Below are positions 31,114 to 45,892 of a stretch of DNA of 64,000 nucleotides, piece after piece. The stretch covers positions 27,639 to 91,638 of the forward strand of contig CAZJYD010000005.1 in NCBI GenBank assembly GCA_964550205.1. Reading direction: 5' to 3'. Made by a program: the position numbers and the translations under genes. Source of the stretch: an uncultured Bacteroidales bacterium. Its GTDB lineage: Bacteria > Bacteroidota > Bacteroidia > Bacteroidales > JAIOZK01. Position 1 is the stretch's first letter. Every line of letters begins with the position of its first letter. Below the pieces are notes generated by a model. The model had not been told where the DNA came from, made no database searches, and saw only the letters and a program-made list of their open reading frames with translations.

Positions 31114-32223
31114 GTGCAAAATAAAAAACGGCTAAAAAAGGTTTCATTTACAACAAAAATATTATTGTTGATAAATCTGATAGTAATCATCGCATTATTA
31201 CTATCCTATTTATCCAATTATATATCGCCGGCAAAATGGGCTTTCCCTGCATTTTTCGGAATAACATATCCAATTATTCTATTAATAAATATATTCTTTG
31301 TAATACTTTGGCTACTGCTATGGAAAAAATATTTATTTCTATCATTAATTGTCATTTTGTCAGGAGCAGGATTTATAGGCAAATATTTACAATTTAATAA
31401 GCAGGAAGAAATACCTGACAAAAACAAAGTTTTAAAAATACTAACATTCAATGTGCATAATCTGACCGAGAACAATTTTAAAAAGCTGGATCAAAAACAA
31501 AATCAGATCTTTGAATACCTGGTTGAGCAATATGCTGATATCACCTGTCTTCAGGAATTCTTTTCTTTCGGGGAGAATTACTATTATCCACTTGTGTTTC
31601 TTCAACGAAAGCTTAACGCTGATAACTATTATTTTCAAAGCTACTATAATCCTTACAGCGAAAAAATAGTTGGTATGGCAATATTCAGCAAACTAAAACG
31701 AATTAATAGTGGAACACTATTCCATGATTCCACAAGAAATTTCGGTATTTATGGTGATTATATATTCATTAATGACACATTCCGGGTTTACAATATTCAT
31801 CTGGAATCGCTTTATCTGGGAAAAGATGATTACGATATGATTACAGGAAATCAATTAAACAAAATCGACAGGAAAAAATCATCCGAACTTATGAGTAAAT
31901 TAAATATCGCTTTCAGAAACAGAGCCATGCAGGTTAATTCTATTGCAGAACATATGAATACAAGTCCTTATCCTGTTATTTTATGTGGCGATTTTAATGA
32001 TATACCAACATCATATGCATATCATCGTCTCACATCAGGCTTAAAAGATGCTTTTGTTGAACGTGGTTATGGCATGAATAAAACATTCAGAGGCAAATTA
32101 CCGTACTTCAGAATAGACTATATCTGTTACGATCCGGTTTTTAAGGCAAAGAAATTTAATTCAACCGCCGTTGGGATTTCGGATCATTTTCCTGTTTCCT
32201 GTTATCTGGAGAAAACGAATTAG
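31114..32223 (+). CDS. membrane-anchored endonuclease/exonuclease/phosphatase (EEP) family protein
   Basis: Three N-terminal TM helices, then ILTFNVHN, LQEF, GDFND and SDHFPV, which are EEP motifs. Confidence 0.8.
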   Translation: MQNKKRLKKVSFTTKILLLINLIVIIALLLSYLSNYISPAKWAFPAFFGITYPIILLINIFFVILWLLLWKKYLFLSLIVILSGAGFIGKYLQFNKQEEIPDKNKVLKILTFNVHNLTENNFKKLDQKQNQIFEYLVEQYADITCLQEFFSFGENYYYPLVFLQRKLNADNYYFQSYYNPYSEKIVGMAIFSKLKRINSGTLFHDSTRNFGIYGDYIFINDTFRVYNIHLESLYLGKDDYDMITGNQLNKIDRKKSSELMSKLNIAFRNRAMQVNSIAEHMNTSPYPVILCGDFNDIPTSYAYHRLTSGLKDAFVERGYGMNKTFRGKLPYFRIDYICYDPVFKAKKFNSTAVGISDHFPVSCYLEKTN

Positions 32224-32243
32224 TAAACAAACTATCAATATCT

Positions 32244-34280
32244 ATGAAATTTAATCTGGTGTCTGATTTTAAACCCACCGGTGACCAGCCTGAGGCAATT
32301 AAACAATTGTCGGAAGGCATAATCAGGGGGGATGAAGCTCAAACCCTTCTCGGTGTTACAGGTTCGGGAAAAACATTTACCATTGCCAATGTTTTGCAGG
32401 AGATTAACAGACCCACATTAGTACTTAGTCATAATAAAACGCTTGCTGCCCAATTATATGGGGAGTTCAAATATTTTTTCCCTGATAATGCGATTGAATA
32501 TTTTGTTTCGTACTACGATTATTACCAGCCGGAAGCATACATACCATCAACAAATACTTACATAGAAAAGGACCTTTCTATTAATGATGAAATAGAGAAG
32601 TTACGATTAAGTGCAACTTCGGCACTTCTTTCCGGGAGAAGGGATGTTGTTGTTGTTTCTTCGGTATCCTGTATATATGGTATAGGCAATCCTGATGATT
32701 TTACAAATAACATAATACAGGTAACAACAGGTGATTATATCAAAAGAAACAAATTATTACATGATCTTGTTTCCAGTTTATATTCGCGTGACGAAATTGA
32801 ATTCGGCCGTGGAAAATTCAGGGTCAGAGGTGATACTGTTGACATTTTTCCGGCATATTCTGATTTTGCTTACAGGATTTATTTCTGGGGAGATGAGATA
32901 GAAGCTATAGAATCATTTAATGCATACGATGGCCAAAAATTAAATGATCATGAAAAAATTATTATTTACCCTGCTAATGTTTTTATTACCTCTCAGGATA
33001 AGATGAAACAGGCACTAAATGAGATCAGGGATGACCTTACAAAGCAAATAACATATTTTAAAGAAAATAGCCTGCAGCTTGAGGCCAATCGACTTGAAGA
33101 CAGAGTATTATATGATGTAGAGATGATGCAGGAGCTTGGATACTGTTCGGGAATTGAGAATTATTCCAGGTATTTTGACGGTCGTAAACCGGGCACAAGA
33201 CCATTTTGTTTGTTAGACTATTTTCCTGATGATTATTTAATTGTTATTGATGAAAGTCATGTTACCATACCCCAGATAAGGGCTATGTACGGTGGGGACA
33301 GATCAAGGAAACAAACACTTGTAGAGCATGGCTTCAGGCTTCCTTCTGCTATGGATAACAGACCATTGAAATTTGATGAGTTTGAGTCTATGATCAATCA
33401 GGCAGTTTTTGTAAGCGCCACTCCATCGGATTATGAGTTGCAAAAATCAGAAGGGGTTGTCGTTGAACAATTAATCAGACCTACCGGATTATTGGATCCT
33501 GTTATTGAGGTCAGACCTAGCGAGAATCAAATTGACGACCTGCTCGACGAAATTAATAAAACCGTTGAACTGGATAACAGGGCTCTTGTAACCACTCTGA
33601 CAAAAAGGATGGCTGAAGAACTGACAAAATACATGACAAAACTAAACATTAAATGCCGTTACATACACAGCGAAGTTGGCACTATTGAAAGGGTTGAGAT
33701 AATGAGAGATCTTCGTTTTGGCGAATTTGATGTGCTTGTTGGTGTGAACCTTCTGCGTGAAGGTTTGGATTTACCTGAAGTTGCTCTCGTAGCAATTCTT
33801 GATGCTGATAAAGAAGGTTTTTTAAGATCAGAAAAATCATTAACACAAACAGCCGGAAGGGCTGCAAGAAACTTAAACAGTAAAGTATTAATGTATGCTG
33901 ACACTATAACTTTGTCAATGCAAAAATCTATTGATGAGACCAACCGTAGAAGAGAAAAACAAATTCTTTATAATCAAAAGCATAATATCACTCCTGCCCC
34001 AATCCAAAAATCCAGGGAGTCTATTATGAGCCAGACTAGTGTTGCGGATTCCAGAAAAAAAGAACCACAGCCATACATAGAAAATGATAAAACTAATGTT
34101 GCAGCCGATCCTGTTGTTCAATATATGAATGCAGATCAAATTAAACGGTTGATATCAGAAAACAAAAATGCTATGCAAAAAGCTGTTAAAAAACTCGATT
34201 TTATAGAAGCAGCAAGAATAAGAGATGAAATATACGCATTAGACGAATTGCTTAAAAATAAAGCTAATAATTTTTCATGA
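32244..34280 (+). CDS. uvrB: excinuclease ABC subunit B
   Basis: GVTGSGKT, IDESHVT, the YVSYYDYYQPEAY beta-hairpin region, and a C-terminal UVR motif (FIEAARIRDEI). Confidence 0.97.
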   Translation: MKFNLVSDFKPTGDQPEAIKQLSEGIIRGDEAQTLLGVTGSGKTFTIANVLQEINRPTLVLSHNKTLAAQLYGEFKYFFPDNAIEYFVSYYDYYQPEAYIPSTNTYIEKDLSINDEIEKLRLSATSALLSGRRDVVVVSSVSCIYGIGNPDDFTNNIIQVTTGDYIKRNKLLHDLVSSLYSRDEIEFGRGKFRVRGDTVDIFPAYSDFAYRIYFWGDEIEAIESFNAYDGQKLNDHEKIIIYPANVFITSQDKMKQALNEIRDDLTKQITYFKENSLQLEANRLEDRVLYDVEMMQELGYCSGIENYSRYFDGRKPGTRPFCLLDYFPDDYLIVIDESHVTIPQIRAMYGGDRSRKQTLVEHGFRLPSAMDNRPLKFDEFESMINQAVFVSATPSDYELQKSEGVVVEQLIRPTGLLDPVIEVRPSENQIDDLLDEINKTVELDNRALVTTLTKRMAEELTKYMTKLNIKCRYIHSEVGTIERVEIMRDLRFGEFDVLVGVNLLREGLDLPEVALVAILDADKEGFLRSEKSLTQTAGRAARNLNSKVLMYADTITLSMQKSIDETNRRREKQILYNQKHNITPAPIQKSRESIMSQTSVADSRKKEPQPYIENDKTNVAADPVVQYMNADQIKRLISENKNAMQKAVKKLDFIEAARIRDEIYALDELLKNKANNFS

Positions 34281-34377
34281 TAGTTAATTATAAGTCCATA
34301 TCCATTTCAGATACATTTATTAACCTAAGTTTGCAAATAACTTTACAATGTATTTGGGTTTAATACTTAAAATTGTA

Positions 34378-34385
34378 TATATTTG
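34378..34385 (+). promoter_or_regulatory. -7 box (TATATTTG) at the head of the EPS locus
   Basis: Matches TAnnTTTG, 40 nt upstream of the ATG at 34425. Confidence 0.45.
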
Positions 34386-34424
34386 TTTTTTTAAAAATCG
34401 TTTTTTTTGTAAAAAATTAGTTCG

Positions 34425-34796
34425 ATGAAGAAGAAAATTCTAATTATTGATGATGAATTAAGCATCAGAATGTTGCTTGAAAATTTCCTTAAAAAGGATT
34501 ACCAGGTTATCACAAAAAATGATGGACTTGATGGGCTCAAGTGGATGGAAGAAGGTAATATTCCTGATTTAATAGTAGCAGATATTCAGATGCCAAATCT
34601 CGACGGTTATGAATTCATTAAGAATGTTCGAGCGAGTGGCTATTTCAAGGACATACCTCTCATAATGCTTTCGGGTATTGAAAGTAGTTCAGAAAAGGTA
34701 AAATGCCTTAAATTGGGCGCCAATGATTATATTGTTAAACCATTTAACCCGGAAGAATTATCAATAAGAATCGAATTACTACTCAGCAGAAAATAG
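34425..34796 (+). CDS. single-domain (CheY-like) response regulator, canonical
   Basis: All receiver signature residues are present: ILIIDDE, LIVADIQMPNLDG, LIMLSG and YIVKPF. There is no output domain. Confidence 0.9.
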   Translation: MKKKILIIDDELSIRMLLENFLKKDYQVITKNDGLDGLKWMEEGNIPDLIVADIQMPNLDGYEFIKNVRASGYFKDIPLIMLSGIESSSEKVKCLKLGANDYIVKPFNPEELSIRIELLLSRK

Positions 34797-34814
34797 TCCT
34801 CACTACCTTGCTAA

Positions 34815-36035
34815 ATGATCAACCAGATGGAAATTAATACTGATAAAGAATATCAAATACTTTATGTAGGCGGGGATACCAAACTTATAAGTAGTTTTAA
34901 AAAAGAATCTCCTTTTTTTATAATTAACCTGGTTGAAAATGGTTTAGAGGCAATTCAATTTCTGAAAAATAATCCGGGAAAGATAGATACCATTATATGC
35001 GAAGATAATCTTCCAGGTGTTAATGGAATTGAACTCTTCAGAATGATCAGGCAAAAATTTTCTTTACAAACAATACCTTTTATAATTATTGCACACGATA
35101 AACCTCAGGAACTGGTAAATAAAGCTATCAAAGAAAAGATTGACGATGTATACTCAGTACCGCTCTCGGTAGAAAAGGTTTTTGAACGCATAAAGTTTGT
35201 TACAAAATATAAAACTGAATATCAAACAGAAGAAAAAGAAAAACAAACTTCACCTGAATATAAAATACCAATTATTAAGAGGGCTTTTGATATAATAGTA
35301 TCAGGTTTTACTTTGATTCTTTTATCTCCTCTTTTTTTTATAATAACCCTGGCAATAAAGATAGAATCTAAAGGCGGTGTTTTTTATACTTCAAAAAGAG
35401 TTGGTACAGGCTATAAGATATTTGATTTCTATAAGTTCAGATCAATGTATACTGGTGCTGACGCTAAACTTAAGGAGCTAGCTCATCTCGATAAATACAG
35501 CAGAAATAAAAAGGAAGAAAAAGAAGAAGAAGAAAAAAAATATTTTGAACAATGCCCCCGTTGTGCAAAGTTACCTGACGGCGAATATTGCTCCCCAACA
35601 CTTTATACAGGTGGACAAAAGATTTGTGAATACTGGTACAATGAAATAACAAAACATAAAGTACAATCGACATTTAAAAAAATTAAGGACGATCCCCGTG
35701 TTACTAAAATCGGAAGAATAATCAGAAATACAAGTATTGATGAATTGCCTCAATTATTTAATGTTTTAAAAGGAGATATGTCTATCGTTGGTAACCGGCC
35801 TCTTCCTCTTTATGAAGCTGAATTGCTAACATCAGACGACTGGAGTGAAAGATTTTTAGGTCCTGCAGGTATAACAGGTTTGTGGCAAGTGGAATTACGT
35901 GGGAAAAAAGGCGAAATGTTGGAAGATGAACGAAAAGCACTGGATAATCAATATGCAAGGACCTATTCTTTCTGGGGTGATATTAAGCTGATTTTACGTA
36001 CTATCCCTGCCTTGCTACAGAAAGAAAATGTATAA
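34815..36035 (+). CDS. undecaprenyl-phosphate sugar-phosphotransferase (monotopic PGT, Bac_transf family) fused to an N-terminal degenerate receiver domain
   Basis: The C-terminal half has the re-entrant helix FDIIVSGFTLILLSPLFFI, then YKFRSM, DDPRVTKIGRIIR, SIDELPQLFNVLKGDMSIVGNRP and GLWQV. The N-terminal ~125 aa has receiver topology, but Glu63 sits at the phospho-Asp position. Confidence 0.85.
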   Translation: MINQMEINTDKEYQILYVGGDTKLISSFKKESPFFIINLVENGLEAIQFLKNNPGKIDTIICEDNLPGVNGIELFRMIRQKFSLQTIPFIIIAHDKPQELVNKAIKEKIDDVYSVPLSVEKVFERIKFVTKYKTEYQTEEKEKQTSPEYKIPIIKRAFDIIVSGFTLILLSPLFFIITLAIKIESKGGVFYTSKRVGTGYKIFDFYKFRSMYTGADAKLKELAHLDKYSRNKKEEKEEEEKKYFEQCPRCAKLPDGEYCSPTLYTGGQKICEYWYNEITKHKVQSTFKKIKDDPRVTKIGRIIRNTSIDELPQLFNVLKGDMSIVGNRPLPLYEAELLTSDDWSERFLGPAGITGLWQVELRGKKGEMLEDERKALDNQYARTYSFWGDIKLILRTIPALLQKENV

Positions 36036-36228
36036 TATTTTACTGTATCACAGACGATTAACAAATGAATTACATTTAATATGCTTTTAACCAAATAATT
36101 ATTAGTGCTCGAATTGTTAAAAACTATTGGATAAATTTTTAAACAAATTTTTCAAATCATATAAAAAATGATGTAGCTTGCTGCTTTATTTCGTAAGTAT
36201 AATATTATTAGGTAAAATACGATTTTGT

Positions 36229-37014
36229 ATGAGATGTATTATGAATAACTTATTATATATCTTAATAATAATAACTTGTTTATCAATCAATAAAGAATCT
36301 TTTCCCCAGATCTATACTGACAAAACAGAAATTGATAGCTCAAGATATTTTAATCCCTTAACTGATGATGTTGCAAAAAAATTACCACCGCTTCAGGCAC
36401 TAATCGATTCTGCAATAGCCAACTCTCCAAATGTTAAAATCCAGGAATTGGAAGCACAGTACAACAGCTATGAAATTAAATCTGAAAAACTCAATTGGTG
36501 GCGAAACATATATCTCGATGCAGAATTAGATGCAGGTAACTGGTTATACAGAGACCGCAACGAATTAGCCGGTAATATTCCTTATGATTATGAATCAAGA
36601 AGATTTTCCTATTACGGTGGTTTTTCTATTCGTTTTCCTCTTATTGATATTTTTAACAGAAGGAATCAAATCAATATGAAAAAGAAATTAAAAGAAATTT
36701 CTCTGGTCAGAAGAGAGTTGAGAATTCGTGAAATACGGGAATTGGTTGTTACAACTTATAATGAACTTATTCAGCAACAAAGATTACTTAGAATAAGTAA
36801 TGAATATCAACAATATGCTAATATTTATATGCCTATCGCAGAAATGGAATTCAAGAACGGTGAAATACCGGCCTCAGAATTACAAAGGTTGAAGGACTAC
36901 CAAACCAGAGGTGCAATTATGTTTGCTGATATTGTAAAGGCATTTAATGAGGCATACTGGAAATTAGAAGAGATTGTTGGTATGAAGTTCAATTTAATAA
37001 ATGTAATGAAGTAA
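36229..37014 (+). CDS. single-repeat TolC/OEP-like outer-membrane protein
   Basis: Signal-like N-terminus followed by one OEP-type unit: LQALIDSAIANSPNVK..., two strands, and long helices. The ORF track opens at a TTG (36178); the ATGs at 36229 or 36241 are more likely starts. Its stop overlaps the next ATG. Confidence 0.6.
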   Translation: MRCIMNNLLYILIIITCLSINKESFPQIYTDKTEIDSSRYFNPLTDDVAKKLPPLQALIDSAIANSPNVKIQELEAQYNSYEIKSEKLNWWRNIYLDAELDAGNWLYRDRNELAGNIPYDYESRRFSYYGGFSIRFPLIDIFNRRNQINMKKKLKEISLVRRELRIREIRELVVTTYNELIQQQRLLRISNEYQQYANIYMPIAEMEFKNGEIPASELQRLKDYQTRGAIMFADIVKAFNEAYWKLEEIVGMKFNLINVMK

Positions 37015-39920
37015 TGGATTTTTACCAGTTTTATCAACTGTTTAGAAGACATCTGTTATTATTAATTTTAGTGCCTTTTGTGTTGGCGTTGACTGTTTAT
37101 TTGTTTACCCGTAAACAATCAAAAACATATTCTTCAGAAGCTATTATTTACTCAGGTATTGCAACAGGTTATTCAATTGAAACGATGGAAAGTGCTTACC
37201 TTGATTATTATGGTACCAATGTTCAATTTGATAATCTGATAAATCTTTTCTTTTCAAGACAAACAATTGAACAAACTGCTATCAAGTTGCTTGCCCAGGA
37301 TTTATGCCTGGAACAATACAATCCTCAATATATTTCAAAGCAGCATTTTGATGAACTACAAGCATTGGTATCAAAAGAAGTGAAAAACCTTGTAGTTAAA
37401 CATGGAAAAATGGGCCTTGAAAGAGAAAGAGAAGAACAAATACTAAAGCTTGAAGAAGAAATACAATCATTGGAACAAGAAATTACACGTAAAAAAGACT
37501 ATGCAAAACAAGCAATTGAAGGCAACGAACCTGTAAATACAGAACAATATTATCAACAAAAAAAAGAAACAACCTCTGATGCTGAGCAATATGAAAAACC
37601 GATCTTTCACAGGGTAAGTTCCGGTGAATCCATTTACTCAATTGCCAGCATGTACGGATTATCTGTAGGAGAATTAATAGAAATAAATAATCTAAGTACT
37701 AACAGGGTAGAACCAGGGCAAATACTTATAGTTGAAAAAGCTGATATAGCTACAAAGAACCAATATCATATTGTCGAGCCAGGTGAAACATTATATTCAA
37801 TTGCAAGAAAAAATGATGTTAGCATAAGTAAACTGAGGCAACTTAATAATCTTAAAACTGATAAATTAAAAGTAGGTCAGCGTTTGATAGTCAGCAGGGT
37901 AATACCTGTTGACAATTCTTCAACCGATTACTCAAATGAAACATCTTCATACTATGATCAGTCACAACAAAAAAGTCTTAAAACAACAAAACAAAGGAGG
38001 GAATTATTCCAGGTTCCACGCATGAATCAATCACAACCTCCGAAAGATCCGATTATTCCTCCCGGTGTTATACCTGAAGATTATTATGCAACAGTAGATA
38101 ATTTCAATGAATACTATCGTTCGAGCGATACCAATTTTATTTACGAATTATTGCATTATGCTCATAAGCATTACAGTATCAGAGCAATTACATTGAATTC
38201 TAACATCAACAGGGTCAAGAACAGCGACCTTATTAAAATAACTTATCAGAGCGACGATCCGGGTATATGTCAGCAAACATTGAAAATTCTCGCTCAGGTG
38301 TTTATCAGAAACTATAAACTATTGAGAGTTAACCAAACCGATGCAGTTGTTAATTATTTCCAGGAACAGGTGGATTCAGCAAATGCAAAACTTCAGAGGG
38401 CTGAGGACAGATTATTACAATTCAATAAGAGGAATAACATAATTAATTATTACGAACAAAGTAAATATATAGCAGCTCAAAAAGAAGACCTTGATCTTTA
38501 TGTTCAAAACGAACAGATAAGACTTGCCTCGGCTGCTGCCGCATTAAATGAGCTTGAAACAAAACTTGCTTCAAAGGACAGTATATATCTTGCTTCAGAT
38601 GAAATTCAAAAGGTCCGTCAAAAGTTATCTGAAGTTGAAGAAAAAATATTTATTAATGAACTTGACGCAGAAAATGATCCAAGGATCGGCAACAAGCTCG
38701 AAGAATTAAAACTTGTTGCCAAGCAATACAGAAACCAGTTAAAATATCTTGTCGATAAATATTATATGTACAGTCATTCGCCTGAGGGAATACCGATAAA
38801 AGAATTATTAACAGAATGGCTGGATAATGTACTTGCTTTTGAGGAATCAAAAGCTGCAATGAGAGTATTAAGACAAAGAAAAGATGAATTCAGGGCAGTT
38901 TATCAGGTAATGGCTCCTTTAGGTGCTATGTTAAAACGTATTGAAAGGGAAATAGATGTTGCAGAAGAATCATATCTTGAACTCTTACGCAACCTTAATA
39001 TGGCTAAAATGAAACAGCAAAATATTGAAATGGCAACAAATATTAAAATTGTTGATGAGCCATTCTTTCCCATTGCACCCAATCCTTCAAGAGCAAAATT
39101 GCTCGTTATCGTCGCTGCTGTTATTGGTTTTATTTTGGTTGCTTTCCTCATACTAATGCTTGAGTTTTTTGATACATCAGTTAAGTCATCTGATAGAGTC
39201 CAGAAAGTTACTAAATTGAAACTGGCCGGGGCGTATCCAAAATACGGCTCTGGTGCCCAATCGCAAGAATTTAAAGACGCATCGGAAAGATTACTTGAGA
39301 TCATGATCCAAAATATTAAGCTTGCAATCGGTCACCATTCACTATACACTTCAGAAAAGCCTTATTTCATTCTGATTTTTAGTACCCAGCCCGGTACCGG
39401 TAAAACGACAATAGCCACAAATCTGATCAGAAAACTAAGATCATACGGCGAAAAAGTGCTATACCTTAATTACACAAGAGAAGATAAAAGTAAAATTGAT
39501 GACGACTATAACTATACTATACAATATAAAATAGATAACAAATTTGTAGAAATAAAACATTTAAAAGACCTATTAAAAAATAATTATATCAGACAAGAAA
39601 ACTATACTTATGACTACATCTTTCTTGAAATCCCATCAATAATATTCAATTCCTTTCCTCTTGATCTTATTGAAACAGTTGACTTTTCATTAATTGTGAT
39701 AAGAGCCAAAGATTACTGGAAAAAGGCTGATATGACTGCCCTTAACACAATGCTGGAAGTATCAAGGGAAAAACCAATGATCATACTCAATCAGGCCGAA
39801 GTTTATGCATTGGAAGACATTTTGCATAGCGTTCCGAAACATAAACCTTCGATCAGAAAAAAAATAAAAAAAATACTGATGTATCCTTTTAAATTCAGGA
39901 TTCGAGTAAAAGTAGATTAA
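37014..39920 (+). CDS. polysaccharide co-polymerase (Wzz/GumC-type chain-length/export protein) with two inserted LysM domains and a degenerate C-terminal BY-kinase-like P-loop domain
   Basis: TM1 (aa ~14-32), a Wzz-like periplasmic region (LIKITYQSDDPGICQQTL, long coiled coils), TM2 (LLVIVAAVIGFILVAFLILML), then the cytoplasmic block ILIFSTQPGTGKTTIATNL. Confidence 0.8.
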   Translation: MDFYQFYQLFRRHLLLLILVPFVLALTVYLFTRKQSKTYSSEAIIYSGIATGYSIETMESAYLDYYGTNVQFDNLINLFFSRQTIEQTAIKLLAQDLCLEQYNPQYISKQHFDELQALVSKEVKNLVVKHGKMGLEREREEQILKLEEEIQSLEQEITRKKDYAKQAIEGNEPVNTEQYYQQKKETTSDAEQYEKPIFHRVSSGESIYSIASMYGLSVGELIEINNLSTNRVEPGQILIVEKADIATKNQYHIVEPGETLYSIARKNDVSISKLRQLNNLKTDKLKVGQRLIVSRVIPVDNSSTDYSNETSSYYDQSQQKSLKTTKQRRELFQVPRMNQSQPPKDPIIPPGVIPEDYYATVDNFNEYYRSSDTNFIYELLHYAHKHYSIRAITLNSNINRVKNSDLIKITYQSDDPGICQQTLKILAQVFIRNYKLLRVNQTDAVVNYFQEQVDSANAKLQRAEDRLLQFNKRNNIINYYEQSKYIAAQKEDLDLYVQNEQIRLASAAAALNELETKLASKDSIYLASDEIQKVRQKLSEVEEKIFINELDAENDPRIGNKLEELKLVAKQYRNQLKYLVDKYYMYSHSPEGIPIKELLTEWLDNVLAFEESKAAMRVLRQRKDEFRAVYQVMAPLGAMLKRIEREIDVAEESYLELLRNLNMAKMKQQNIEMATNIKIVDEPFFPIAPNPSRAKLLVIVAAVIGFILVAFLILMLEFFDTSVKSSDRVQKVTKLKLAGAYPKYGSGAQSQEFKDASERLLEIMIQNIKLAIGHHSLYTSEKPYFILIFSTQPGTGKTTIATNLIRKLRSYGEKVLYLNYTREDKSKIDDDYNYTIQYKIDNKFVEIKHLKDLLKNNYIRQENYTYDYIFLEIPSIIFNSFPLDLIETVDFSLIVIRAKDYWKKADMTALNTMLEVSREKPMIILNQAEVYALEDILHSVPKHKPSIRKKIKKILMYPFKFRIRVKVD
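37608..37892 (+). other. tandem LysM domains inside the PCP periplasmic region
   Basis: HRVSSGESIYSIASMYGLSVGELIEINNLSTNRVEPGQILIV and YHIVEPGETLYSIARKNDVSISKLRQLNNLKTDKLKVGQRLIV both fit the LysM consensus. Confidence 0.85.
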
Positions 39921-39929
39921 TGAAATCAG

Positions 39930-41372
39930 GTGAAGAAACAATTAGTAAATCTATTAAGAAACCGTAATTTTCTTTCATTATCCAGCAATCTTGCTGTTGC
40001 TGTTTTTGGCTTTCTCAGCTTTATTATTCTTGTCCGTACTCTTAAACCCGATCTTTTTGGAGAATGGGTTCTCTATATTACAGCGGGAAATTTTGTTGAG
40101 ATGCTCCGCTTCGGTATAACAAGAACTGCAATTATAAGATTCCTTTCCGGTGCAAAGGAAAGTGAACGAAAGGAACTGATCGGTTCTAATTGGATAATCG
40201 GGTTATTTGCTACAATTATAATTGCAATTATTTTATGGTCGGTTTATTTATTATTTCCAATAAAGATAGCAGATTCAGGATTTTCATTATTCTTTATATG
40301 GTACCCAATTCTTGGTTTTTTGAATCTGCCATTCAATAACGCATTATCAATATTACAGGCAGATCAAAAGTTTGACAGGATTCTATTTATAAGAGTAATA
40401 AATGTAGGAAGTTTCTTAGTATTTTTAATCATTAATCTGTTTGTGATCAGATGGGGATTGATGAATATCTTATATACTCACCTTTTTATTAATTTCTTAA
40501 CATCAATACTAGCTATGTTTTTAAAATGGGATGGTTTAAAGTATATTTTTAAAGCAACCAGAAAAACAAATAATATCATACTTAACTTTGGAAAATATAC
40601 GACCGGAACTTTAATAGGAAGTAACTTACTTAAAAGTTCGGATACCTTTATAATTGGTCTGAGCCCCTTTCTCGGCACCGCAGGTGTTGCTTTTTACAGT
40701 GTGCCTTTAAAACTGACAGAGATACTGGAAATTCCCTTACGGAGCTTTGTTGCCACAGCTTTTCCCAGAATGTCAAAAGAAAGCATTAAGAACAATTTAA
40801 AGGAAGTAAAAAACATCTACTATGCATACACCGGATCAATGATTTATCTTCTCTTTCCTATAATTGTAATTTGTTTCATCTTTGCTGAAGAATTCGTTAT
40901 TATTCTCGGTGGACAAGAATATGCAGGCACTGCCAACATATTCAGGATATTTTGTATTTATGGACTCTTCATACCTATTGATAAATTTACAGGTGTTGCA
41001 CTCGATAGTATTAATATGCCCAAGAAAAACTTCTATAAAGTTTTATATATGGCAATAGCAAATATTGTAGGTGATTCGGTTGTTATTTTCATACTTTCGA
41101 AATTCCTTCTTGGTTTATCATTATCTGCACTTATTATTTTCACAAGTACTGATATTACATTAATACCGGCAATCAGTTCTGAATTTGCTTTAATGAAAAC
41201 ACTGGAAATGGTTGCTATAGTAACTATTCTTTTTACATTAATAGGTATTGCTGTTGGTTTGTACTACTTAAATAAAGAAATAAAAATTCAGTTTAAATTT
41301 GTATTTATAATCGGATGGGGATTTTTCTGGTATTTTATAAAAAGCACAATAACAGGATTAAAAAAGACTTAA
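39930..41372 (+). CDS. Wzx-type oligosaccharide flippase (MOP superfamily)
   Basis: 480 aa with ~12-14 TM helices and the typical polysaccharide-biosynthesis-protein N-terminus. GTG start. Confidence 0.7.
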   Translation: MKKQLVNLLRNRNFLSLSSNLAVAVFGFLSFIILVRTLKPDLFGEWVLYITAGNFVEMLRFGITRTAIIRFLSGAKESERKELIGSNWIIGLFATIIIAIILWSVYLLFPIKIADSGFSLFFIWYPILGFLNLPFNNALSILQADQKFDRILFIRVINVGSFLVFLIINLFVIRWGLMNILYTHLFINFLTSILAMFLKWDGLKYIFKATRKTNNIILNFGKYTTGTLIGSNLLKSSDTFIIGLSPFLGTAGVAFYSVPLKLTEILEIPLRSFVATAFPRMSKESIKNNLKEVKNIYYAYTGSMIYLLFPIIVICFIFAEEFVIILGGQEYAGTANIFRIFCIYGLFIPIDKFTGVALDSINMPKKNFYKVLYMAIANIVGDSVVIFILSKFLLGLSLSALIIFTSTDITLIPAISSEFALMKTLEMVAIVTILFTLIGIAVGLYYLNKEIKIQFKFVFIIGWGFFWYFIKSTITGLKKT

Positions 41373-41410
41373 AAAGTATAACATTATATTTGTTATAAAA
41401 TTTAATATAT

Positions 41411-42865
41411 ATGGGTATCAATAACAGAACCGGATCGGCCAAATTAGAAAATCCCTGGATAATGGCTCTTTTAATAGGCTCAATGGTTCTTATCGGTTAC
41501 CTGATATCCGTTGGTGGATTAATGGCAGCTATGGGCATACTAGCCTTACCACCTGTTCTATTCTATCTTAACAGGCTTTTTGTTAATCCGAGAATTGGTC
41601 TTTTTACAGTTATTATCCTTGCATTCACAGCAATAGGATTAAACCGGTATATTACCGGCTTACCATTGGGTTTGAGTGTGGATATGATGCTTGTTCTTAC
41701 ATATATAGCTCTTTTCTTCAAACACTTTTATAAAAAGTTGGATCTTAGCACAATTAAAACCGATCTAACATTATTAGCCCTTATATGGTTTTTATATACG
41801 GTGATGGAATTTTTCAATCCAGAAGCTCTTAGCAAAAAGGCCTGGTTTTATGCAATGCGCGGAATATCTCTTTATATGTTTCTTACCATACCATTAACAT
41901 ACTTATTATTCAACAAGATTAAATATTTAAATTATTTACTTTATATATGGGCAGTATTTTCAATTCTGGCAACTATTAAAGGATGGATGCAAATAACAAT
42001 AGGCCCTGACTATGCAGAACAACGTTGGTTGGATCAGGGAGGTGCGGTAACACACTTACTTTTTGGTCAGCTAAGAGTATTTTCATTTTATTCAGATGCT
42101 GGTCAGTTTGGTGCTGCCCAGGCCTCAGCTGGAGTAGCCGGTACTGTTTTAGCATTAAATGCAAAAAATATGAAGGAGAGAATTCTGTTTGCCTTAATGG
42201 CACTGGCAGGGTATTGGGGGATGATGATCTCAGGTACACGCGGTGCAATGATTGTACCCTTGATCGGAGGATTTGTTTATATAATTCTTAGAAAAAATAT
42301 ACGCGTTATAGTATTGGGGGCATTATTATTAATAACTATGTATGCATTCTTCCGCTACACTTATTTGGGCCAGGGTAACCAATATATCAGACGAATGCGA
42401 ACGGCATTTCGTCCGGAAGATGCTGCATCATTACAGGTACGCCTGGAAAACAGAAGGATACTTAAAGGTTATCTCAGATCAAGACCCTTTGGAGGTGGTA
42501 TAGGTAGCGCCGGAACTTGGGGTCAAAGATTCTCACCAAATGGTTTTCTTGCTCAAATACCCACAGATAGCTGGTACGTTCAAATTTGGGCAGAACAGGG
42601 TATTATAGGATTAATGTTGCACTTAATAATATTATCTTATATTGTTGTTAAAGGATCATACATAATTATGTTCAAGCTAAAAGACCCGGTGCTACGTGGC
42701 AAAATAAGCGCCCTGATGGCTGCTTTTACCGGCATCATGGGCGCAAGCTATGGAAATGGGGTACTGGGACAAATGCCTACAGGCATTATTACATACATGA
42801 GTTGGGTTTATCTTTTTATAGCTCCCCAACTTGATGAGGAAATAAGAAAATTGAAAAACAGGTAA
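41411..42865 (+). CDS. O-antigen ligase/Wzy-type polymerase family membrane protein
   Basis: 484 aa polytopic protein with a Wzy_C-like block (MISGTRGAMIVPLIGG) and a large loop carrying RxxxxRP-type basic residues. Confidence 0.65.
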   Translation: MGINNRTGSAKLENPWIMALLIGSMVLIGYLISVGGLMAAMGILALPPVLFYLNRLFVNPRIGLFTVIILAFTAIGLNRYITGLPLGLSVDMMLVLTYIALFFKHFYKKLDLSTIKTDLTLLALIWFLYTVMEFFNPEALSKKAWFYAMRGISLYMFLTIPLTYLLFNKIKYLNYLLYIWAVFSILATIKGWMQITIGPDYAEQRWLDQGGAVTHLLFGQLRVFSFYSDAGQFGAAQASAGVAGTVLALNAKNMKERILFALMALAGYWGMMISGTRGAMIVPLIGGFVYIILRKNIRVIVLGALLLITMYAFFRYTYLGQGNQYIRRMRTAFRPEDAASLQVRLENRRILKGYLRSRPFGGGIGSAGTWGQRFSPNGFLAQIPTDSWYVQIWAEQGIIGLMLHLIILSYIVVKGSYIIMFKLKDPVLRGKISALMAAFTGIMGASYGNGVLGQMPTGIITYMSWVYLFIAPQLDEEIRKLKNR

Positions 42866-42873
42866 ATAAAAAA

Positions 42874-43686
42874 ATGATGAAAAATAACACTATAGACCTG
42901 GTAAAAATAATTCATACCACAATTGAGGCAGGTACCACAGTTAAAGAAGTTTATAATACAAAATTTACGATCGAAAAAAAAGAGGACAAAAGCCCTCTAA
43001 CTATTGCTGATACTATGTCGCATAAAATAATAACTTACGATTTAAAAAAATTAGAACTGCCAATAATGAGTGAGGAAGGAAAAAAAGTTTCTTACAATAA
43101 AAGAAAAAACTGGACAGATTATTGGTTGGTTGATCCTTTAGACGGAACGAAAGAATTTATTAAAAGAAATGATGAGTTTACAATTAACATTGCACTGATA
43201 AACAACCAATTACCTGTGTTAGGTATAATCTATGTACCTGTTCTGGATTTATTATACTGGGCGCAAAAAGAAATTGCTTCATTTAAGTTGGAAAATGTTT
43301 CTGATAAATTGAACAAAATAAAAGATAAAGATAACTTGATTGAATTAAGCACTAAGCTGCCGATTCAGGATAAACCCGAAGTTTTCACCATAGTTGCCAG
43401 TCGCTCACATATGTCTGACGAAACACAGGAATACATTGAAAAAATGAAAAAGAAACACAAAAATGTCACAATAATGTCCAAGGGATCTTCACTTAAATTA
43501 TGCATGATTGCTGAAGGACTTGCAAATGCTTATCCCAGGTTTGCCCCTACTTATGAATGGGATACTGCAGCAGGCCAGGCTATAGTTGAATACGCAGGAG
43601 GAAAAGTTTTACAGATAAACGAAAGGGATAAACTAATATATAATAAAAAGAATTTGATTAATCCCTGGTTTATTGCTAAGAGATAA
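42874..43686 (+). CDS. cysQ: 3'(2'),5'-bisphosphate nucleotidase (CysQ) / inositol-monophosphatase-family phosphatase
   Basis: SPLTIAD, WLVDPLDGTKEFI and EWDTAAGQAIV motifs. Length is 270 aa. Confidence 0.75.
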   Translation: MMKNNTIDLVKIIHTTIEAGTTVKEVYNTKFTIEKKEDKSPLTIADTMSHKIITYDLKKLELPIMSEEGKKVSYNKRKNWTDYWLVDPLDGTKEFIKRNDEFTINIALINNQLPVLGIIYVPVLDLLYWAQKEIASFKLENVSDKLNKIKDKDNLIELSTKLPIQDKPEVFTIVASRSHMSDETQEYIEKMKKKHKNVTIMSKGSSLKLCMIAEGLANAYPRFAPTYEWDTAAGQAIVEYAGGKVLQINERDKLIYNKKNLINPWFIAKR

Positions 43687-43689
43687 TTT

Positions 43690-44637
43690 ATGCAAAAAAC
43701 CCTTTATAAAAAAAAGCCTTTAAGTGAATATCCACTGGTATCAATAGTTACTGTTAATTACGACCACCCGGAAGTAACATGTGATATGATCGATTCATTA
43801 AACAAAATCACATATCCTAATATTGAGATTATTGTGGTTGATAATAATTCCCCAAATGATGATCCACGTATTATTAAAAAAAAATTTCCAAATATTGTAT
43901 TTGTTGAAAATCCAATAAATTATGGATTTGCCGCAGGTAACAATTTCGGAATAATGAGAGCAAGAGGTAAATATGTTCTTCTATTAAATAATGACACTAT
44001 TGTTGACAGACAATTTATGGAACCTTTGGTTAATACTTTGGAAAATAATCCGGATATCGGAGCCGTCAGCCCCAAAATAAGGTTTTTTCATACTCCTGAT
44101 ACAATACAATATGCAGGATATACACCAATTAACTATTACACCATGCGTAACTTCGCTATTGGATATAATAAGGTTGATCAAGGTCAGTATGACAAAAACT
44201 ACGAAACAGCATATGGTCATGGGGCAGCATTAATGGTGCCGGTTAAAGTTATAAAAGAAATCGGTTTAATGTCTTATATCTTTTTTCTTTATTATGAAGA
44301 AGCCGACTGGTGTGCACGTATTAAAAAAGCCGGATATAAAATATTTTATGTTCACAATTCACTTGTTTTTCACAAAGAATCAATCTCAACAGGTAAATTA
44401 AGCCCTATGAAAATATACTACCTCAACAGAAACAGAATTGTATTTATGAGGAGAAATATTTTTGGTAAATCATTTTTAATAGGTATTCTATATCAACTTT
44501 TTATTGCTATTCCAAAAAATGCATTGAAATTCTTATTAAAAGGCAAAATCAAATTATTTTATGCTTATTACAGAGCTATCGGATGGCATTTAAAAAATAT
44601 TTTCAGTAAAGAAATTTATGAAAATCCCAGATTATAA
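43690..44637 (+). CDS. glycosyltransferase family 2
   Basis: VSIVTVNYD...IIVVDNNSPNDD, GFAAGNN, LLLNNDT and the YEEADWC pattern. Confidence 0.85.
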   Translation: MQKTLYKKKPLSEYPLVSIVTVNYDHPEVTCDMIDSLNKITYPNIEIIVVDNNSPNDDPRIIKKKFPNIVFVENPINYGFAAGNNFGIMRARGKYVLLLNNDTIVDRQFMEPLVNTLENNPDIGAVSPKIRFFHTPDTIQYAGYTPINYYTMRNFAIGYNKVDQGQYDKNYETAYGHGAALMVPVKVIKEIGLMSYIFFLYYEEADWCARIKKAGYKIFYVHNSLVFHKESISTGKLSPMKIYYLNRNRIVFMRRNIFGKSFLIGILYQLFIAIPKNALKFLLKGKIKLFYAYYRAIGWHLKNIFSKEIYENPRL

Positions 44638-44658
44638 GTCTATCATTTTGAAATTTCA

Positions 44659-44666
44659 TATTTTTG
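44659..44666 (+). promoter_or_regulatory. possible internal -7 box (TATTTTTG)
   Basis: Matches TAnnTTTG, 39 nt upstream of the ATG at 44705, in a 67-nt gap. Confidence 0.35.
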
Positions 44667-44704
44667 ATATATATTGCCTTTATATAGATAAATAAGTTTA
44701 AGTT

Positions 44705-45892
44705 ATGAGCATCTATGTGCAAATAATGATTATTATTCAGTTAATATTGCTTATCTATATTGGGGTATCCTCAATTTACTATTTCACATATGCTGTCGGC
44801 GGATTATTCTACAAACCACCCAAATTTATAAAGGATAGAAATATAAGAAAATTTTGTGTTTTATTACCTGGTTATAAGGAAGATAAGGTTATTATTAATG
44901 CAACCGAAGATGCCTTAAAACAGGAATATCCCCGTAATAAATACGATATATACGTAATTGCAGATTCATTTAAACAGCAAACATTGGATAAGCTAAAGCA
45001 ATTACCTGTTAACGTTATTGAAGTTGAATTTAAAATAAGCACAAAGGCAAAAGCCCTTAATAAGGCGATGGAACTAATTGAAAATAATTACGACAGTGTA
45101 CTGGTTCTTGATGCCGATAATATTATTGACAGAGATTTCCTGAATAAGGTTAATAATGCTTTTGGGCAAGGATACAAGGCTATACAAGGACACCGGACAG
45201 CTAAAAATATGAATACATCATTTGCAGTGCTCGATGCAATCAGTGAGGAAATTAATAATCATATATTCAGAAGAGGACACCGGGCATTGGGAATATCTTC
45301 AGCTCTGATTGGTTCCGGAATGGCTTTCGATTTTAAATTATACAAAAACTATATGTCTAGAATAGATTCTCATGCCGAAGATAAAGAATTGGAATTAAAA
45401 CTTTTTAAGGATCATTATAAAATAGAATTCCTCGATACTGCCTATGTATTGGATGAAAAGGTAAGTAAATCAGGTGTTTTCCTGAAACAACGAAGTAGAT
45501 GGATAGCTAACCAGATGCTGTATGCCAGAAAGTATTTTGTAGATTCTATTGTTGCTTTATTCAATGGCAATTTTGACTTGTTTGACAAGGTTTTTCAATA
45601 TTTCCTTCCACCTAGAATATTATTACTGGGATCTGTTTATATTATTCTTGTGCTTTCGCTGATATTCAATCCTATAACCTATTCAATCGCATGGATTGTT
45701 ATATTTGCCTTTGTTAACCTTGCTATTTTAATATCAGTTCCACGGAAATTTTATAATTTTAAAATATTTAAACACCTTTTAAAACTTCCATATGGGTTTA
45801 TATTAATGATTTTTTCAATTTTGAATTTTCAGAGAGCCCTGAAAAGTTTTAATCCAACTCCTCATTCAGGTGATGATGAATCAAATAAATAA
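44705..45892 (+). CDS. membrane-integrated synthase-type GT2 glycosyltransferase (QxxRW class), paralog 1
   Basis: N-terminal TM, GT-A core (LLPGYKED, LDADN, GSGMAF), QRSRW, and C-terminal TM helices. Confidence 0.8.
   Translation: MSIYVQIMIIIQLILLIYIGVSSIYYFTYAVGGLFYKPPKFIKDRNIRKFCVLLPGYKEDKVIINATEDALKQEYPRNKYDIYVIADSFKQQTLDKLKQLPVNVIEVEFKISTKAKALNKAMELIENNYDSVLVLDADNIIDRDFLNKVNNAFGQGYKAIQGHRTAKNMNTSFAVLDAISEEINNHIFRRGHRALGISSALIGSGMAFDFKLYKNYMSRIDSHAEDKELELKLFKDHYKIEFLDTAYVLDEKVSKSGVFLKQRSRWIANQMLYARKYFVDSIVALFNGNFDLFDKVFQYFLPPRILLLGSVYIILVLSLIFNPITYSIAWIVIFAFVNLAILISVPRKFYNFKIFKHLLKLPYGFILMIFSILNFQRALKSFNPTPHSGDDESNK

Follow-up and report, generated by a model that had tools for sequence, protein, structure and literature searches.

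Described outer-membrane routes of Wzx/Wzy-dependent and ABC-dependent polysaccharide export all use an OPX protein, alone or with a β-barrel porin; many Bacteroidota genomes carry OPX genes, and most OPX proteins have no membrane-spanning part and are paired with a separately encoded porin (10.1101/2022.02.11.480155). In the Wza–Wzc complex of Escherichia coli (group 1 capsule, colanic acid; PDB 9r64/9r68, 7nhr), Wzc forms octamers that dock onto Wza through their helical arms (PMC12881504). The class-3 OPX proteins of Myxococcus xanthus, which act with an 18-stranded β-barrel (WzaX/WzpX), illustrate that a non-Wza pore is possible in Wzx/Wzy pathways and can be encoded beside the pathway genes. 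Export of heterocyst glycolipid by DevBCA–HgdD is TolC-dependent. A previous proposal has cyanobacterial cellulose leaving the cell through a TolC-like polysaccharide exit (PMC8892547). Here we describe a half-size, TolC-like gene in the position of wza, which suggests an undescribed polysaccharide route across the outer membrane.

Gene content of the exopolysaccharide cluster

The window (the whole 64,000-nt stretch of DNA analyzed) contains a co-directional cluster of ~23 kb, with 20 genes between 34.4 and 59.8 kb (Table 1). Its first gene encodes a stand-alone receiver, a homologue of which also precedes the half-size OEP gene in most related loci; promoter-like TAnnTTTG motifs lie ahead of it, at 34326 and 34378. 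The adjacent gene encodes the initiating glycosyl-phosphotransferase (PGT), whose NCBIfam match to EPS_sugtrans (1.1e-69, 235.8 bits) lies below the 295.55-bit cut-off. The flippase that follows the polysaccharide co-polymerase (PCP) is kept in 59 loci, and the polymerase in 60. The remaining genes, separated by gaps of −4 to 67 nt, comprise an inositol-monophosphatase-family gene, four GT2 and three GT4 genes, a hexapeptide acyltransferase, two methyltransferases, a TPR hybrid histidine kinase, a hybrid histidine kinase, and a β-helix protein with a T9SS sorting domain (53329–55023). PGT, Wzx, Wzy and PCP genes occur together, in a block kept in ~60 loci; by gene content, this is a conserved Bacteroidota Wzx/Wzy-dependent exopolysaccharide cluster.

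Table 1 Features of the half-size OEP gene and its cluster, in window coordinates
Feature	Position	Strand	Evidence or detail
Stand-alone response-regulator receiver gene, first in cluster	34425..34796	+	Pfam Response_reg E 1.7e-27
Receiver fused to initiating polyprenyl-phosphate glycosyl-phosphotransferase (PGT)	34815..36035	+	Bac_transf 5.2e-56, Response_reg 5.6e-10
Half-size (single-repeat) TolC/OEP-family gene	36241..37014	+	257 aa; PF02321 match, AF2, Foldseek
Predicted Sec signal peptide of half-size OEP	36241..36306	+	aa 1–22; hydrophobic N-terminus
Predicted transmembrane β-hairpin of half-size OEP	36511..36633	+	aa 91–131; DSSP strands 91–106, 116–131
Predicted long helix and return helix of half-size OEP	36640..36978	+	aa 134–205 (72 residues), aa 211–246; AF2
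TAATG stop/start overlap, half-size OEP gene/PCP gene	37012..37016	+	Sequence
Wzc-like polysaccharide co-polymerase (PCP)	37014..39920	+	968 aa; Pfam, NCBIfam, AF2, Foldseek, hydropathy
Wzx-type flippase	39930..41372	+	Pfam Polysacc_synt_3 1.1e-16
Wzy-type polymerase	41411..42865	+	Pfam Wzy_C 4.2e-10
Rest of co-directional cluster	42874..59753	+	Pfam; genes listed in the text

A predicted single TolC-type repeat

The preliminary description had reported an ORF ending at 37014 with a signal-peptide-like N-terminus, and both were recovered. The open frame spans 36178..37014 (+), and the likely start is ATG 36241 (MNNLLY..., 257 aa) or the alternative ATG 36229 (261 aa), with TTG 36178 as a further candidate. 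An identical database protein (P0001) has 261 aa, the length given by ATG 36229. The mature protein of ~235 residues would begin at Gln23 (codon 36307–36309), which is invariant in 77 of 77 diverse family members and at least 90% conserved in an 86-sequence alignment. This conservation fits the 'Q-rule' of Bacteroidetes SPase I. As far as sequence can show, the half-size protein is Sec-exported; no conserved lipobox Cys was found in the family, and by the same reading it is not a lipoprotein.

Pfam analysis revealed exactly one PF02321 OEP stretch (aa 51–218, E 1.4e-16, 61.3 bits against a curated cut-off of 22 bits), in agreement with the single repeat claimed earlier. In the AF2 monomer model (pLDDT 85.8), DSSP places a helix at aa 63–89 ahead of the hairpin and the two helices listed in Table 1. 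The helix and strand segments named in the preliminary description match these elements, except that 'PLIDIF' is already part of the long helix. In strand 1, L92/A94/L96/A98 alternate with D93/E95/D97, and in strand 2, F122/Y124/G126/F128/I130/F132 alternate with S/Y/G/S/R, the pattern expected for a membrane hairpin; the 9-residue loop is variable, while W86, G99 and P133 at the hairpin ends are conserved. The turn AEMEFKNGEI (aa 200–209), the fourth most conserved 10-residue window in the family alignment (F204, G207 and I209 at least 90%), would be the periplasmic tip in the model.

Comparison with the PDB by Foldseek returned OMF channels for all of the top 39 matches (OprM/TolC/CmeC/VceC/CusC-type chains), with TM scores of 0.51–0.58 on the query and 0.31–0.36 on the target (best match 3.7e-6, ~0.57 and ~0.33, respectively). 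The low target values relative to the query values indicate that the half-size protein covers about half of each TolC/OprM-type chain. An hhalign comparison gave a weak match to TolC residues 227–356, in the second repeat. The order and lengths of the modelled elements match H2-S1-S2-H3-H4 of one TolC repeat, reportedly given as 23/–/–/67/34 residues in the 2000 TolC structure paper. At the level of predicted structure, the half-size protein is thus shown to be a single TolC-type repeat, consisting of a short helix, a membrane β-hairpin, a helix of ~105 Å and a return helix.

With the OMF family (TolC, OprM, CmeC, VceC, CusC; PF02321, TCDB 1.B.17) it shares the repeat unit with its predicted α/β fold (AF2 and Foldseek), a Pro where strand passes into helix, a conserved periplasmic tip with a Gly, and Sec export. 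OMF chains carry two tandem OEP repeats (~430–500 aa), whereas one stretch was found here in 257 aa, or one repeat in ~235 mature residues against two in ~430–480. A trimer of single repeats would contribute only 6 strands, compared with the 12-strand/12-helix TolC duct, so that a trimeric duct would not be possible and a copy number other than three is required. The usual docking partner of a TolC-family duct is an HlyD-type adaptor, whereas the half-size gene is paired with the PCP gene of a Wzx/Wzy cluster; no HlyD/MFP adaptor or ABC, RND or MFS transporter gene was detected among the 44 window ORFs scanned with Pfam.

The unusual length, taken alone, would favour an artefact, either a truncated or pseudogenized full-length tolC or a mis-called ORF. 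The family, however, comprises 71 clusters of 234–287 aa and 1737 representatives at 50% identity, the best 150 of which are all ≤295 aa. Its members, labelled 'TolC family protein' or unnamed in databases, span 28–77% identity across at least 93 species-level genomes, where they are always ~230–270 aa long; lengths of 229–287 aa were recorded for the family. Half-size members score at least 191 bits (229–266 aa) and full-length TolCs at most 86 bits (408–475 aa), leaving a gap of more than 100 bits; judged from these comparisons, the feature is far beyond chance. Length is uniform in hundreds of clusters, the signal peptide is intact, and Gln23 is invariant. There is also no second repeat downstream, where the PCP gene starts at the stop codon, nor upstream, where 205 nt (36036–36240) separate the stop of the receiver–PGT gene from the half-size start; this gap, put at ~190 bp earlier, could not accommodate a lost first repeat, as the preliminary description had argued. 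The conservation data refute an artefact, to which we give practically no credence.

Pairing with the co-polymerase gene

The TAA stop of the half-size gene (37012–37014) overlaps the ATG of the PCP gene (37014–37016), as noted previously, and the two genes are shown by their sequence arrangement to be translationally coupled. In 71 of 71 non-redundant species-level loci with enough sequence, the half-size gene is followed directly by a PCP homologue, which starts −59 to +25 nt from the half-size stop. The same order was found in all six more distant loci (the cultured Mucilaginibacter celer and Marinifilum flexuosum, and four metagenomic loci), with partner homology confirmed in three of them (E 1e-96 to 1e-136). 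In M. celer, the receiver and PGT genes are inverted and the pair is intact. Co-occurrence in relatives, which the preliminary description had proposed to check, is thus without exception, and the one-to-one pairing persists where LysM, P-loop or neighbouring genes are lost or rearranged. In the sequences compared, the half-size gene is shown to be always co-inherited with the Wzc-like co-polymerase gene. A literature search found no description of such a pairing, and none had been known to the preliminary description.

Hydropathy analysis of the PCP revealed TM1 at aa 9–33 and a second segment at 691–723, within a region of Pro-rich motif and TM2 (aa 681–723) where D681, P683, P686 and G705 are conserved. 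The arrangement is that of PCP-2a proteins, in which two TM segments flank a large helical periplasmic domain and a Pro/Gly-rich motif precedes TM2. The periplasmic domain contains a clade-specific insertion of coiled coil and two LysM domains (aa ~133–350) and long helical arms (aa 416–674), with AF2 helices of 59–79 residues and a conserved helix–helix turn, FNKxNNIINYYEQ (residues 470–484, of uncertain membrane-distal placement). Pfam detected LysM (1.4e-28), GNVR (3.6e-6; 27.3 bits, slightly below the cut-off of 27.7) and a weak Wzz match, and NCBIfam detected pepcterm_ChnLen (2.5e-14). With the AF2 model (pLDDT 72.7), Foldseek matched Wzc chains at 5.8e-14 to 1e-6 with probability 1.0, the best being E. 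coli Wzc, as well as kinase domains of CapAB/Wzc/BceF; TM scores to Wzc are low (0.19–0.32) because the multi-domain model is flexible. By its modelled fold, the PCP is Wzc-like.

As in the Wza–Wzc system, PGT, Wzx, Wzy and a Wzc-like PCP are present, the outer-membrane gene lies immediately 5' of the PCP gene in one operon, and the PCP combines long periplasmic helical arms with a BY-kinase-like P-loop domain (aa ~780–968). The position of the half-size gene matches that of wza in the E. coli wza-wzb-wzc operon, and, as is typical of OPX genes, it adjoins and is co-expressed with the PCP gene (TAATG overlap here; adjacency in 71 of 71 testable loci). Given the Wzc-like fold of the partner, the gene order may fairly be described as one in which the half-size gene 'takes the place of Wza'. 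Unlike Wza, the half-size protein has no Poly_export, SLBB or Wza_C domain, and has the TolC-repeat fold rather than the Wza fold. Unlike Wzc, the PCP has two LysM domains in this clade and lacks a C-terminal tyrosine cluster, its C-terminus (...KKILMYPFKFRIRVKVD) containing one Tyr and that of its orthologues ending in a basic KRSWLRRxIKK motif. Walker A is present (STQPGTGKTT), but the canonical Asp residues (A' DxD, B DTPP) are missing from the sequences at A' (VLYLNYTRED) and B (IFLEIPS); in the orthologue from M. celer, the P-loop itself has been lost. Unlike wza-wzb-wzc, the cluster has no Wzb-type phosphatase, and Pfam scans of the cluster genes revealed no cognate phosphatase gene.

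The half-size protein could belong to the pathway without being the polymer conduit, serving instead as an anchor or regulator of the PCP, or as the way out for a small molecule or modifying enzyme, with the polymer leaving otherwise. Its function is read from fold and gene order, the LysM domains of the PCP hint at envelope anchoring, and the T9SS-sorted β-helix protein of the cluster uses a different exporter. This alternative nevertheless appears distinctly improbable: channel-forming ducts, to which all significant Foldseek matches belong, are the only known setting of the TolC repeat fold, the strict pairing outlasts loss of LysM and P-loop and rearrangement of neighbours, and Pfam scans revealed no alternative outer-membrane exporter in the cluster.

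OPX search and proposed export route

No Poly_export, SLBB or Wza_C domain was found by Pfam in the 44 largest ORFs of the window (≥139 aa, 91..63320), a set that includes all 20 cluster genes and leaves aside a few ORFs of 110–370 aa outside the cluster and all shorter ones. The earlier statement that no Wza/OPX protein is encoded between 34.4 and 59.8 kb therefore stands. The half-size protein had no match to PF02563 Poly_export at E ≤ 1. No OPX gene was detected within ~10 kb of the half-size gene in 82 loci, nor by Pfam among recurrent neighbour families and their exported-looking representatives; the related loci cover ~10 kb downstream of the half-size gene, less than the full ~23-kb cluster. 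A phmmer search with E. coli Wza, run without a positive control, gave no match at E ≤ 10 against all ORFs of 86 loci. OPX genes being common in Bacteroidota, one encoded elsewhere could serve the cluster.

A composite translocon, with the half-size protein as membrane pore and a periplasmic requirement for an OPX protein encoded elsewhere in the genome, would resemble the class-3 OPX and separate β-barrel porin of Myxococcus. It would also accord with the prevalence of OPX proteins that have no membrane span and a separate porin, and with the many Bacteroidetes genomes that carry OPX (10.1101/2022.02.11.480155). The M. xanthus systems differ from the half-size protein in needing a Poly_export protein and in using a monomeric PgaA/BcsC-like barrel as pore, rather than a TolC-type α/β duct. 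Against a composite translocon, searches of cluster and flanks in the 82 loci found no OPX although the other core components are all clustered, and a TolC-type helical barrel would, as modelled, already span ~100 Å of periplasm; together with the PCP arms, it would give an OPX ring little left to bridge. We consider a composite translocon unlikely.

We lean, at slightly better than even confidence, towards a reading in which several copies of the half-size protein assemble into a TolC-like duct, docked on the PCP, that replaces Wza, the polymer leaving without OPX. The OPX-independent, TolC-like exit put forward in the preliminary description is thus partly supported; of the three refuting conditions set out there, those on the OEP profile and on conservation of the pairing were checked, and both results favour it. 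In this proposal, the half-size protein would be the outer-membrane component of the Wzx/Wzy-dependent exopolysaccharide pathway. Each protomer would give 2 strands and 2 helical columns, so that a homo-oligomer would be needed to close the barrel and form a channel. Six copies, as suggested by TolC homology, would yield a 12-strand/12-helix duct as in TolC; eight, which equally matches the Wzc-type octamer, would yield a 16-strand duct that shares C8 symmetry with Wzc-type co-polymerases and agrees with coupled expression at 1:1. Gene order and conservation peaks point to docking on the PCP, where the duct tip (FxNGEI turn) may meet the arm turn FNKxNNIINYYEQ to form a continuous trans-envelope conduit, a contact analogous to the engagement of Wza by the Wzc arms. 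Polymer made by Wzy would then exit through the duct without a Poly_export/OPX protein, and we infer that none encoded elsewhere would be needed. DevBCA–HgdD and the HlyD-like/TolC-like cellulose pair of Thermosynechococcus likewise have a TolC-type duct as proposed glycolipid or polysaccharide exit, but differ in using full-length trimeric TolC, HlyD-type adaptors and an ABC transporter or synthase, with no PCP and no Wzx/Wzy.

More tentatively, and at somewhat less than even confidence, the locus may represent a fourth kind of outer-membrane polysaccharide translocon, an OPX-free, homo-oligomeric duct of six or eight single repeats standing tip-to-tip on a Wzc-like PCP. Its protomer would be an extant single-repeat OMF, either a survivor from before the internal duplication that produced TolC or a reduction that freed the duct from three-fold symmetry to match an eight-fold partner. 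A natural single-repeat protomer allows tests of α/β duct assembly, copy number, pore size and the origin of the internal duplication. Environmental Bacteroidota carry the family widely, in at least 93 species-level genomes, and the cultured genera Mucilaginibacter and Marinifilum have it as well. If the proposal is true, direct coupling of a TolC-type duct to a co-polymerase would constitute a new export route, linking the ducts of tripartite efflux and T1SS with PCP-based polysaccharide assembly, hitherto treated separately.

A Sec-exported single TolC-type repeat

The preliminary description had reported an ORF with one OEP-type unit. Pfam analysis bore this out, revealing one OEP stretch (PF02321) at aa 51-218 (E 1.4e-16, 61.3 bits; cut-off 22 bits) and no second stretch in the protein. 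An alternative ATG at 36229 gives a 261-aa form, which is the database protein P0001. The upstream gap had been judged too short for a lost first repeat; it measures 205 nt and begins after the stop of another gene, which excludes a hidden repeat there. The exact Bacteroidetes -7 motif TAnnTTTG is absent from this gap, whereas the first cluster gene has two such motifs upstream. No NCBIfam model exists for the half-size OEP family, the sole match being a 20-bit partial one to type_I_sec_TolC.

The half-size OEP is exported by Sec and consists of a single TolC-type repeat. Its AlphaFold2 model, derived from 42 homologues, was confident (mean pLDDT 85.8); the elements are listed in the table. 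The TolC structure paper of 2000 reportedly describes one repeat as H2 of ~23 residues, S1, S2, H3 of ~67 and H4 of ~34. Compared with these values, the predicted element order is the same as in one TolC repeat and the lengths are near-identical. Foldseek analysis against the PDB returned chains of TolC/OprM-type outer membrane factors (OMFs) for all of the top 39 matches, including OprM (3d5k, 3.7e-6), CmeC, TolC (1ek9), VceC, CusC, SilC, OprN and MtrE. The TM scores of ~0.57 on the query and ~0.33 on the targets indicate that the model spans about half of each OMF chain. A sequence search of PDB chains with the family profile recovered no TolC, the top match being a chance hit to Cas2 (E 0.34), and the solved OMFs are thus tied to the half-size OEP by fold comparison only. 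Alignment of the family with E. coli TolC by hhalign was weak (E 0.016, probability 2.9%) and useful for register only. In strand 1, L92/A94/L96/A98 alternate with D93/E95/D97, and in strand 2, F122/Y124/G126/F128/I130/F132 alternate with polar residues, a pattern read from the sequence that is consistent with alternating lipid-facing and lumen-facing residues.

Conservation was measured over 77-86 diverse family members. The most conserved positions include Gln23, the N-terminal OEP motif D56 S57 A58 ... P63, residues W86, G99 and P133 at the hairpin ends, the H3/H4 turn F204-x-x-G207-x-I209, and the C-terminal segment LEEIVGMKFN. At position 23, which follows the predicted cleavage site, all 77 diverse members (100%) carry Gln. 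Under the Bacteroidetes 'Q-rule', the signal peptidase I site is followed by Gln, and the sequence pattern at Gln23 fits such cleavage. Its invariance also agrees with the formation of N-terminal pyroglutamate in SPase I substrates of Bacteroidetes. A lipoprotein reading, based on Cys13 in 'IITC', was rejected because Cys13 is unconserved and Gln23 invariant.

A word-indexed search yielded 71 half-size OEP clusters of 234-287 aa. An exhaustive profile search covering 1.84 billion representatives recovered 1737 proteins at E≤1e-3, 658 at E≤1e-10 and 139 at E≤1e-30; among the best 150 of the 1737, none exceeds 295 aa, and those below 200 aa are fragments. With a second profile, built from the most distant members, half-size proteins (229-266 aa) scored at least 191 bits and full-length TolC-family proteins (408-475 aa) at most 86 bits. 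This gap of more than 100 bits indicates that lengths are bimodal and that the half-size proteins form a clade of their own. On grounds of conservation, a truncated gene and a pseudogene were both rejected, and the chance that the half-size protein is an artefact is negligible.

At least 93 species-level genomes in the GTDB set encode a member, nearly all of them Bacteroidota MAGs (Bacteroidales, Lentimicrobiaceae, Prolixibacteraceae, Mariniphaga, Paludibacter, Fluviicola), and cultured carriers include Mucilaginibacter celer, M. psychrotolerans, M. frigoritolerans and Marinifilum flexuosum. The source databases label them 'TolC family protein' or leave them unnamed. The same six-gene block occurs at the related locus L016 (CALOBC010000030.1), whose contig bears a Myxococcota MAG label. 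Its half-size protein is ~50% identical to the window protein, as are those of the adjacently listed Bacteroidales MAG loci, and the contig probably belongs to Bacteroidales and was mis-binned.

Features of the exopolysaccharide cluster and of the half-size OEP and PCP
Feature	Position	Strand	Remarks
MutL / rhomboid / rhomboid / unknown 369-aa protein / UvrB	27421-34280		order kept in ~23-32 related loci
Cluster start			receiver; receiver-PGT fusion; half-size OEP; PCP; Wzx; Wzy
Cluster after Wzy			inositol-monophosphatase-family gene; four GT2 and three GT4 glycosyltransferases; acyltransferase
Cluster end			two methyltransferases; beta-helix protein with T9SS sorting domain; two hybrid histidine kinases
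Stand-alone receiver, then initiating PGT	34425-36035		PGT with N-terminal response-regulator receiver
Half-size OEP ORF	36178..37014	+	likeliest start ATG 36241, MNNLLY..., 257 aa
Gln23 codon	36307-36309
Stop/start overlap	TAA 37012-37014, ATG 37014-37016	+	ATG of the 968-aa PCP ORF
Coiled-coil and two-LysM insertion	37410-38063		PCP aa ~133-350; one clade only
BY-kinase-like cytoplasmic domain	39351-39920		PCP aa ~780-968
Inositol-monophosphatase / CysQ-like gene	42874-43686		directly after wzy; recurs in 11 loci
Right-handed beta-helix protein	53329-55023		type IX secretion C-terminal sorting domain; inside the polysaccharide cluster
Two hybrid histidine kinases	55858-59753		at cluster end
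Signal-peptide helix, then conserved extended segment	half-size OEP, N-terminal part		AlphaFold2
Helices	half-size OEP aa 51-61, 63-89		AlphaFold2
Two 16-residue strands	half-size OEP aa 91-106, 116-131		AlphaFold2
72-residue helix, then return helix	half-size OEP aa 134-205, 211-246		AlphaFold2

Obligatory genetic coupling to a Wzc-like co-polymerase

The cluster (34425-59753) consists of 20 co-directional genes separated by -4 to 67 nt, except for the 205-nt gap before the half-size OEP. The TAATG overlap with the polysaccharide co-polymerase (PCP) gene is present at 37012-37016, as first described. For comparison, ORFs were called in 80 loci from species-representative genomes and six others, and searched with six core window proteins. 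The pairing proved to be conserved: a PCP homologue is the next gene in 71/71 non-redundant related loci of sufficient extent, its start lying -59 to +25 nt from the half-size OEP stop, and the ten loci lacking a PCP match all end within ~1.1 kb of the half-size gene. The sole spacing outlier is locus L010 (954 nt), where the PCP is fragmented. The block of receiver, receiver-PGT (initiating glycosyl-phosphotransferase), half-size OEP, PCP, Wzx and Wzy was found in ~60 loci, and the pair is also kept in distant family members. M. celer has inverted receiver and PGT genes, and the half-size OEP and its 726-aa partner still overlap by 4 nt; in locus L092, with a divergent flippase and without an adjacent PGT, the pair and Wzy remain together. 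The half-size OEP is thus obligatorily genetically coupled to a Wzc-like PCP, at the position of wza in wza-wzb-wzc.

In 67/82 loci, the half-size OEP gene is found together with receiver and/or receiver-PGT homologues, which form a single homology cluster. The arrangement suggests protein-level control of the first committed step by a phosphorelay. The T9SS beta-helix protein could be a secreted glycanase, lyase or polymer-modifying enzyme. No sulfotransferase was seen in the window cluster to accompany the CysQ-like gene. Cluster and window are equal in GC content (32.1% and 32.7%), and the conserved MutL-UvrB flank places the cluster at a fixed chromosomal site in the clade rather than on a mobile island.

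The PCP has two hydrophobic segments (9-33 and 691-723) and two LysM domains (E 1.4e-28); its GNVR match is near threshold, and its Wzz and chain-length-determinant matches are weak. D681, P683, P686 and G705 in the Pro-rich motif ahead of TM2 are conserved. The AlphaFold2 model (pLDDT 72.7) contains long periplasmic helices (416-474, 479-520, 529-552, 557-585 and 596-674) and a C-terminal alpha/beta domain. The best Foldseek matches were Wzc chains of E. coli, among them those of 2026 Wza-Wzc complex entries (5.8e-14), and the C-terminal domain matched the BY-kinase domains of CapAB, Wzc and BceF. With low full-length TM scores to Wzc (0.19-0.32), the case for similarity depends mainly on Foldseek probability and E-values. 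The PCP retains Walker A (STQPGTGKTT); because Walker A' and B lack the canonical aspartates, the C-terminal tyrosine cluster is missing, and Pfam detected no phosphatase gene in the window cluster, it has a Wzc-like architecture but probably does not act as an autokinase. The M. celer orthologue has lost the P-loop altogether, and a basic motif, KRSWLRRxIKK, is conserved at the C-terminal end of PCP orthologues. The short partners (726-736 aa) are homologous to the N-terminal, periplasmic, TM2 and cytoplasmic parts of the window PCP (E 1e-96 to 1e-136) and lack the 220-residue coiled-coil and LysM insertion, as do PCP orthologues of 705-825 aa. The insertion may tether the machine to peptidoglycan.

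Search for OPX genes

No Wza/OPX (Poly_export/Wza outer-membrane exporter family) protein had been recognised among the ORFs between 34.4 and 59.8 kb, in agreement with Pfam: Poly_export, SLBB and Wza_C are absent from the 44 largest window ORFs (≥139 aa), including all 20 cluster genes; beyond the cluster, the scan excluded some ORFs of 110-370 aa, the two rhomboid-like genes among them. A phmmer search with E. coli Wza (NC_000913.3), run with no positive control, gave no match at E≤10 in any ORF of the 86 loci and the window, and was therefore backed by Pfam scans of neighbour families; E. coli Wzc gave weak matches to the PCPs. After clustering of ~1000 neighbour genes, Pfam was run on representatives of ten recurrent clusters that the window lacks (peptidases, AnmK, GT8, GT2, acyltransferase) and on 20 further representatives picked as exported-looking (binding proteins, esterases, peptidases, T9SS cargo, unknowns). 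No Poly_export or SLBB was found in these representatives, ~40 low-frequency ones judged not exported-looking having been left out. The search in related loci extended over 10-kb flanks, and OPX genes are frequent in Bacteroidetes genomes (10.1101/2022.02.11.480155); a duct working together with an OPX encoded at an unlinked site is, in our assessment, rather unlikely.

Proposed exit route and known systems

An outer-membrane duct that replaces Wza has, in our judgement, a slightly better than even chance of being correct. Each chain would give two strands and two helical columns, so the half-size OEP would have to oligomerise to close a barrel. Six copies would equal TolC's 12+12 duct, and eight would form a wider 16+16 duct, in line with a Wzc-type octamer and with coupled expression at 1:1. 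In the Wzc octamer, helical arms recruit the Wza octamer to form a 360-Å C8 channel, with a Wza-Wzc periplasmic span of ~250 Å (PMC12881504). The 72-residue helix of the half-size OEP would span ~105 Å and the PCP arms ~90-120 Å, together comparable to that distance. On the duct side, the candidate contact is the conserved periplasmic turn AEMEFKNGEI; on the PCP side, it is FNKRNNIINYYEQSK (aa 470-484), the second most conserved PCP segment, which in the model forms the turn between helices 416-474 and 479-520 and is a putative membrane-distal contact site.

By position and coupling the half-size OEP resembles OPX proteins, without any OPX domain. That it is a pathway component other than the polymer conduit is, in our view, improbable. 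Profile and fold place it in the OMF superfamily. It departs from the OMFs in having one repeat per chain, where two give a trimeric duct, and in lacking the HlyD-type adaptor and the efflux or T1SS transporter with which OMFs work. A review, the consulted part of which makes no mention of half-size members, ascribes the repeats of OMFs to gene duplication (PMC8277102). The single-repeat form may be a relic from before that duplication or the product of secondary reduction. Neither a half-size TolC protein nor a TolC-PCP pairing is described in the literature searched, which excluded most subscription journals. Glycoconjugate export through a TolC-type exit has precedents. Heterocyst glycolipid is exported by DevBCA-HgdD. 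For cyanobacterial cellulose, an HlyD-like/TolC-like pair is proposed (PMC8892547). Both of these systems use a full-length TolC with adaptors, not a PCP.

Every detail observed in the preliminary description is confirmed. Its interpretation, in which the polymer may leave independently of OPX through a TolC-like channel of six half-protomers docked on the PCP, is supported in part: the genomic predictions hold strongly, and channel formation, copy number, docking and independence from OPX are putative. The half-size OEP is a natural single-repeat TolC. Widespread, unannotated and open to experiment, it is a candidate for a new way out for polysaccharide across the outer membrane.
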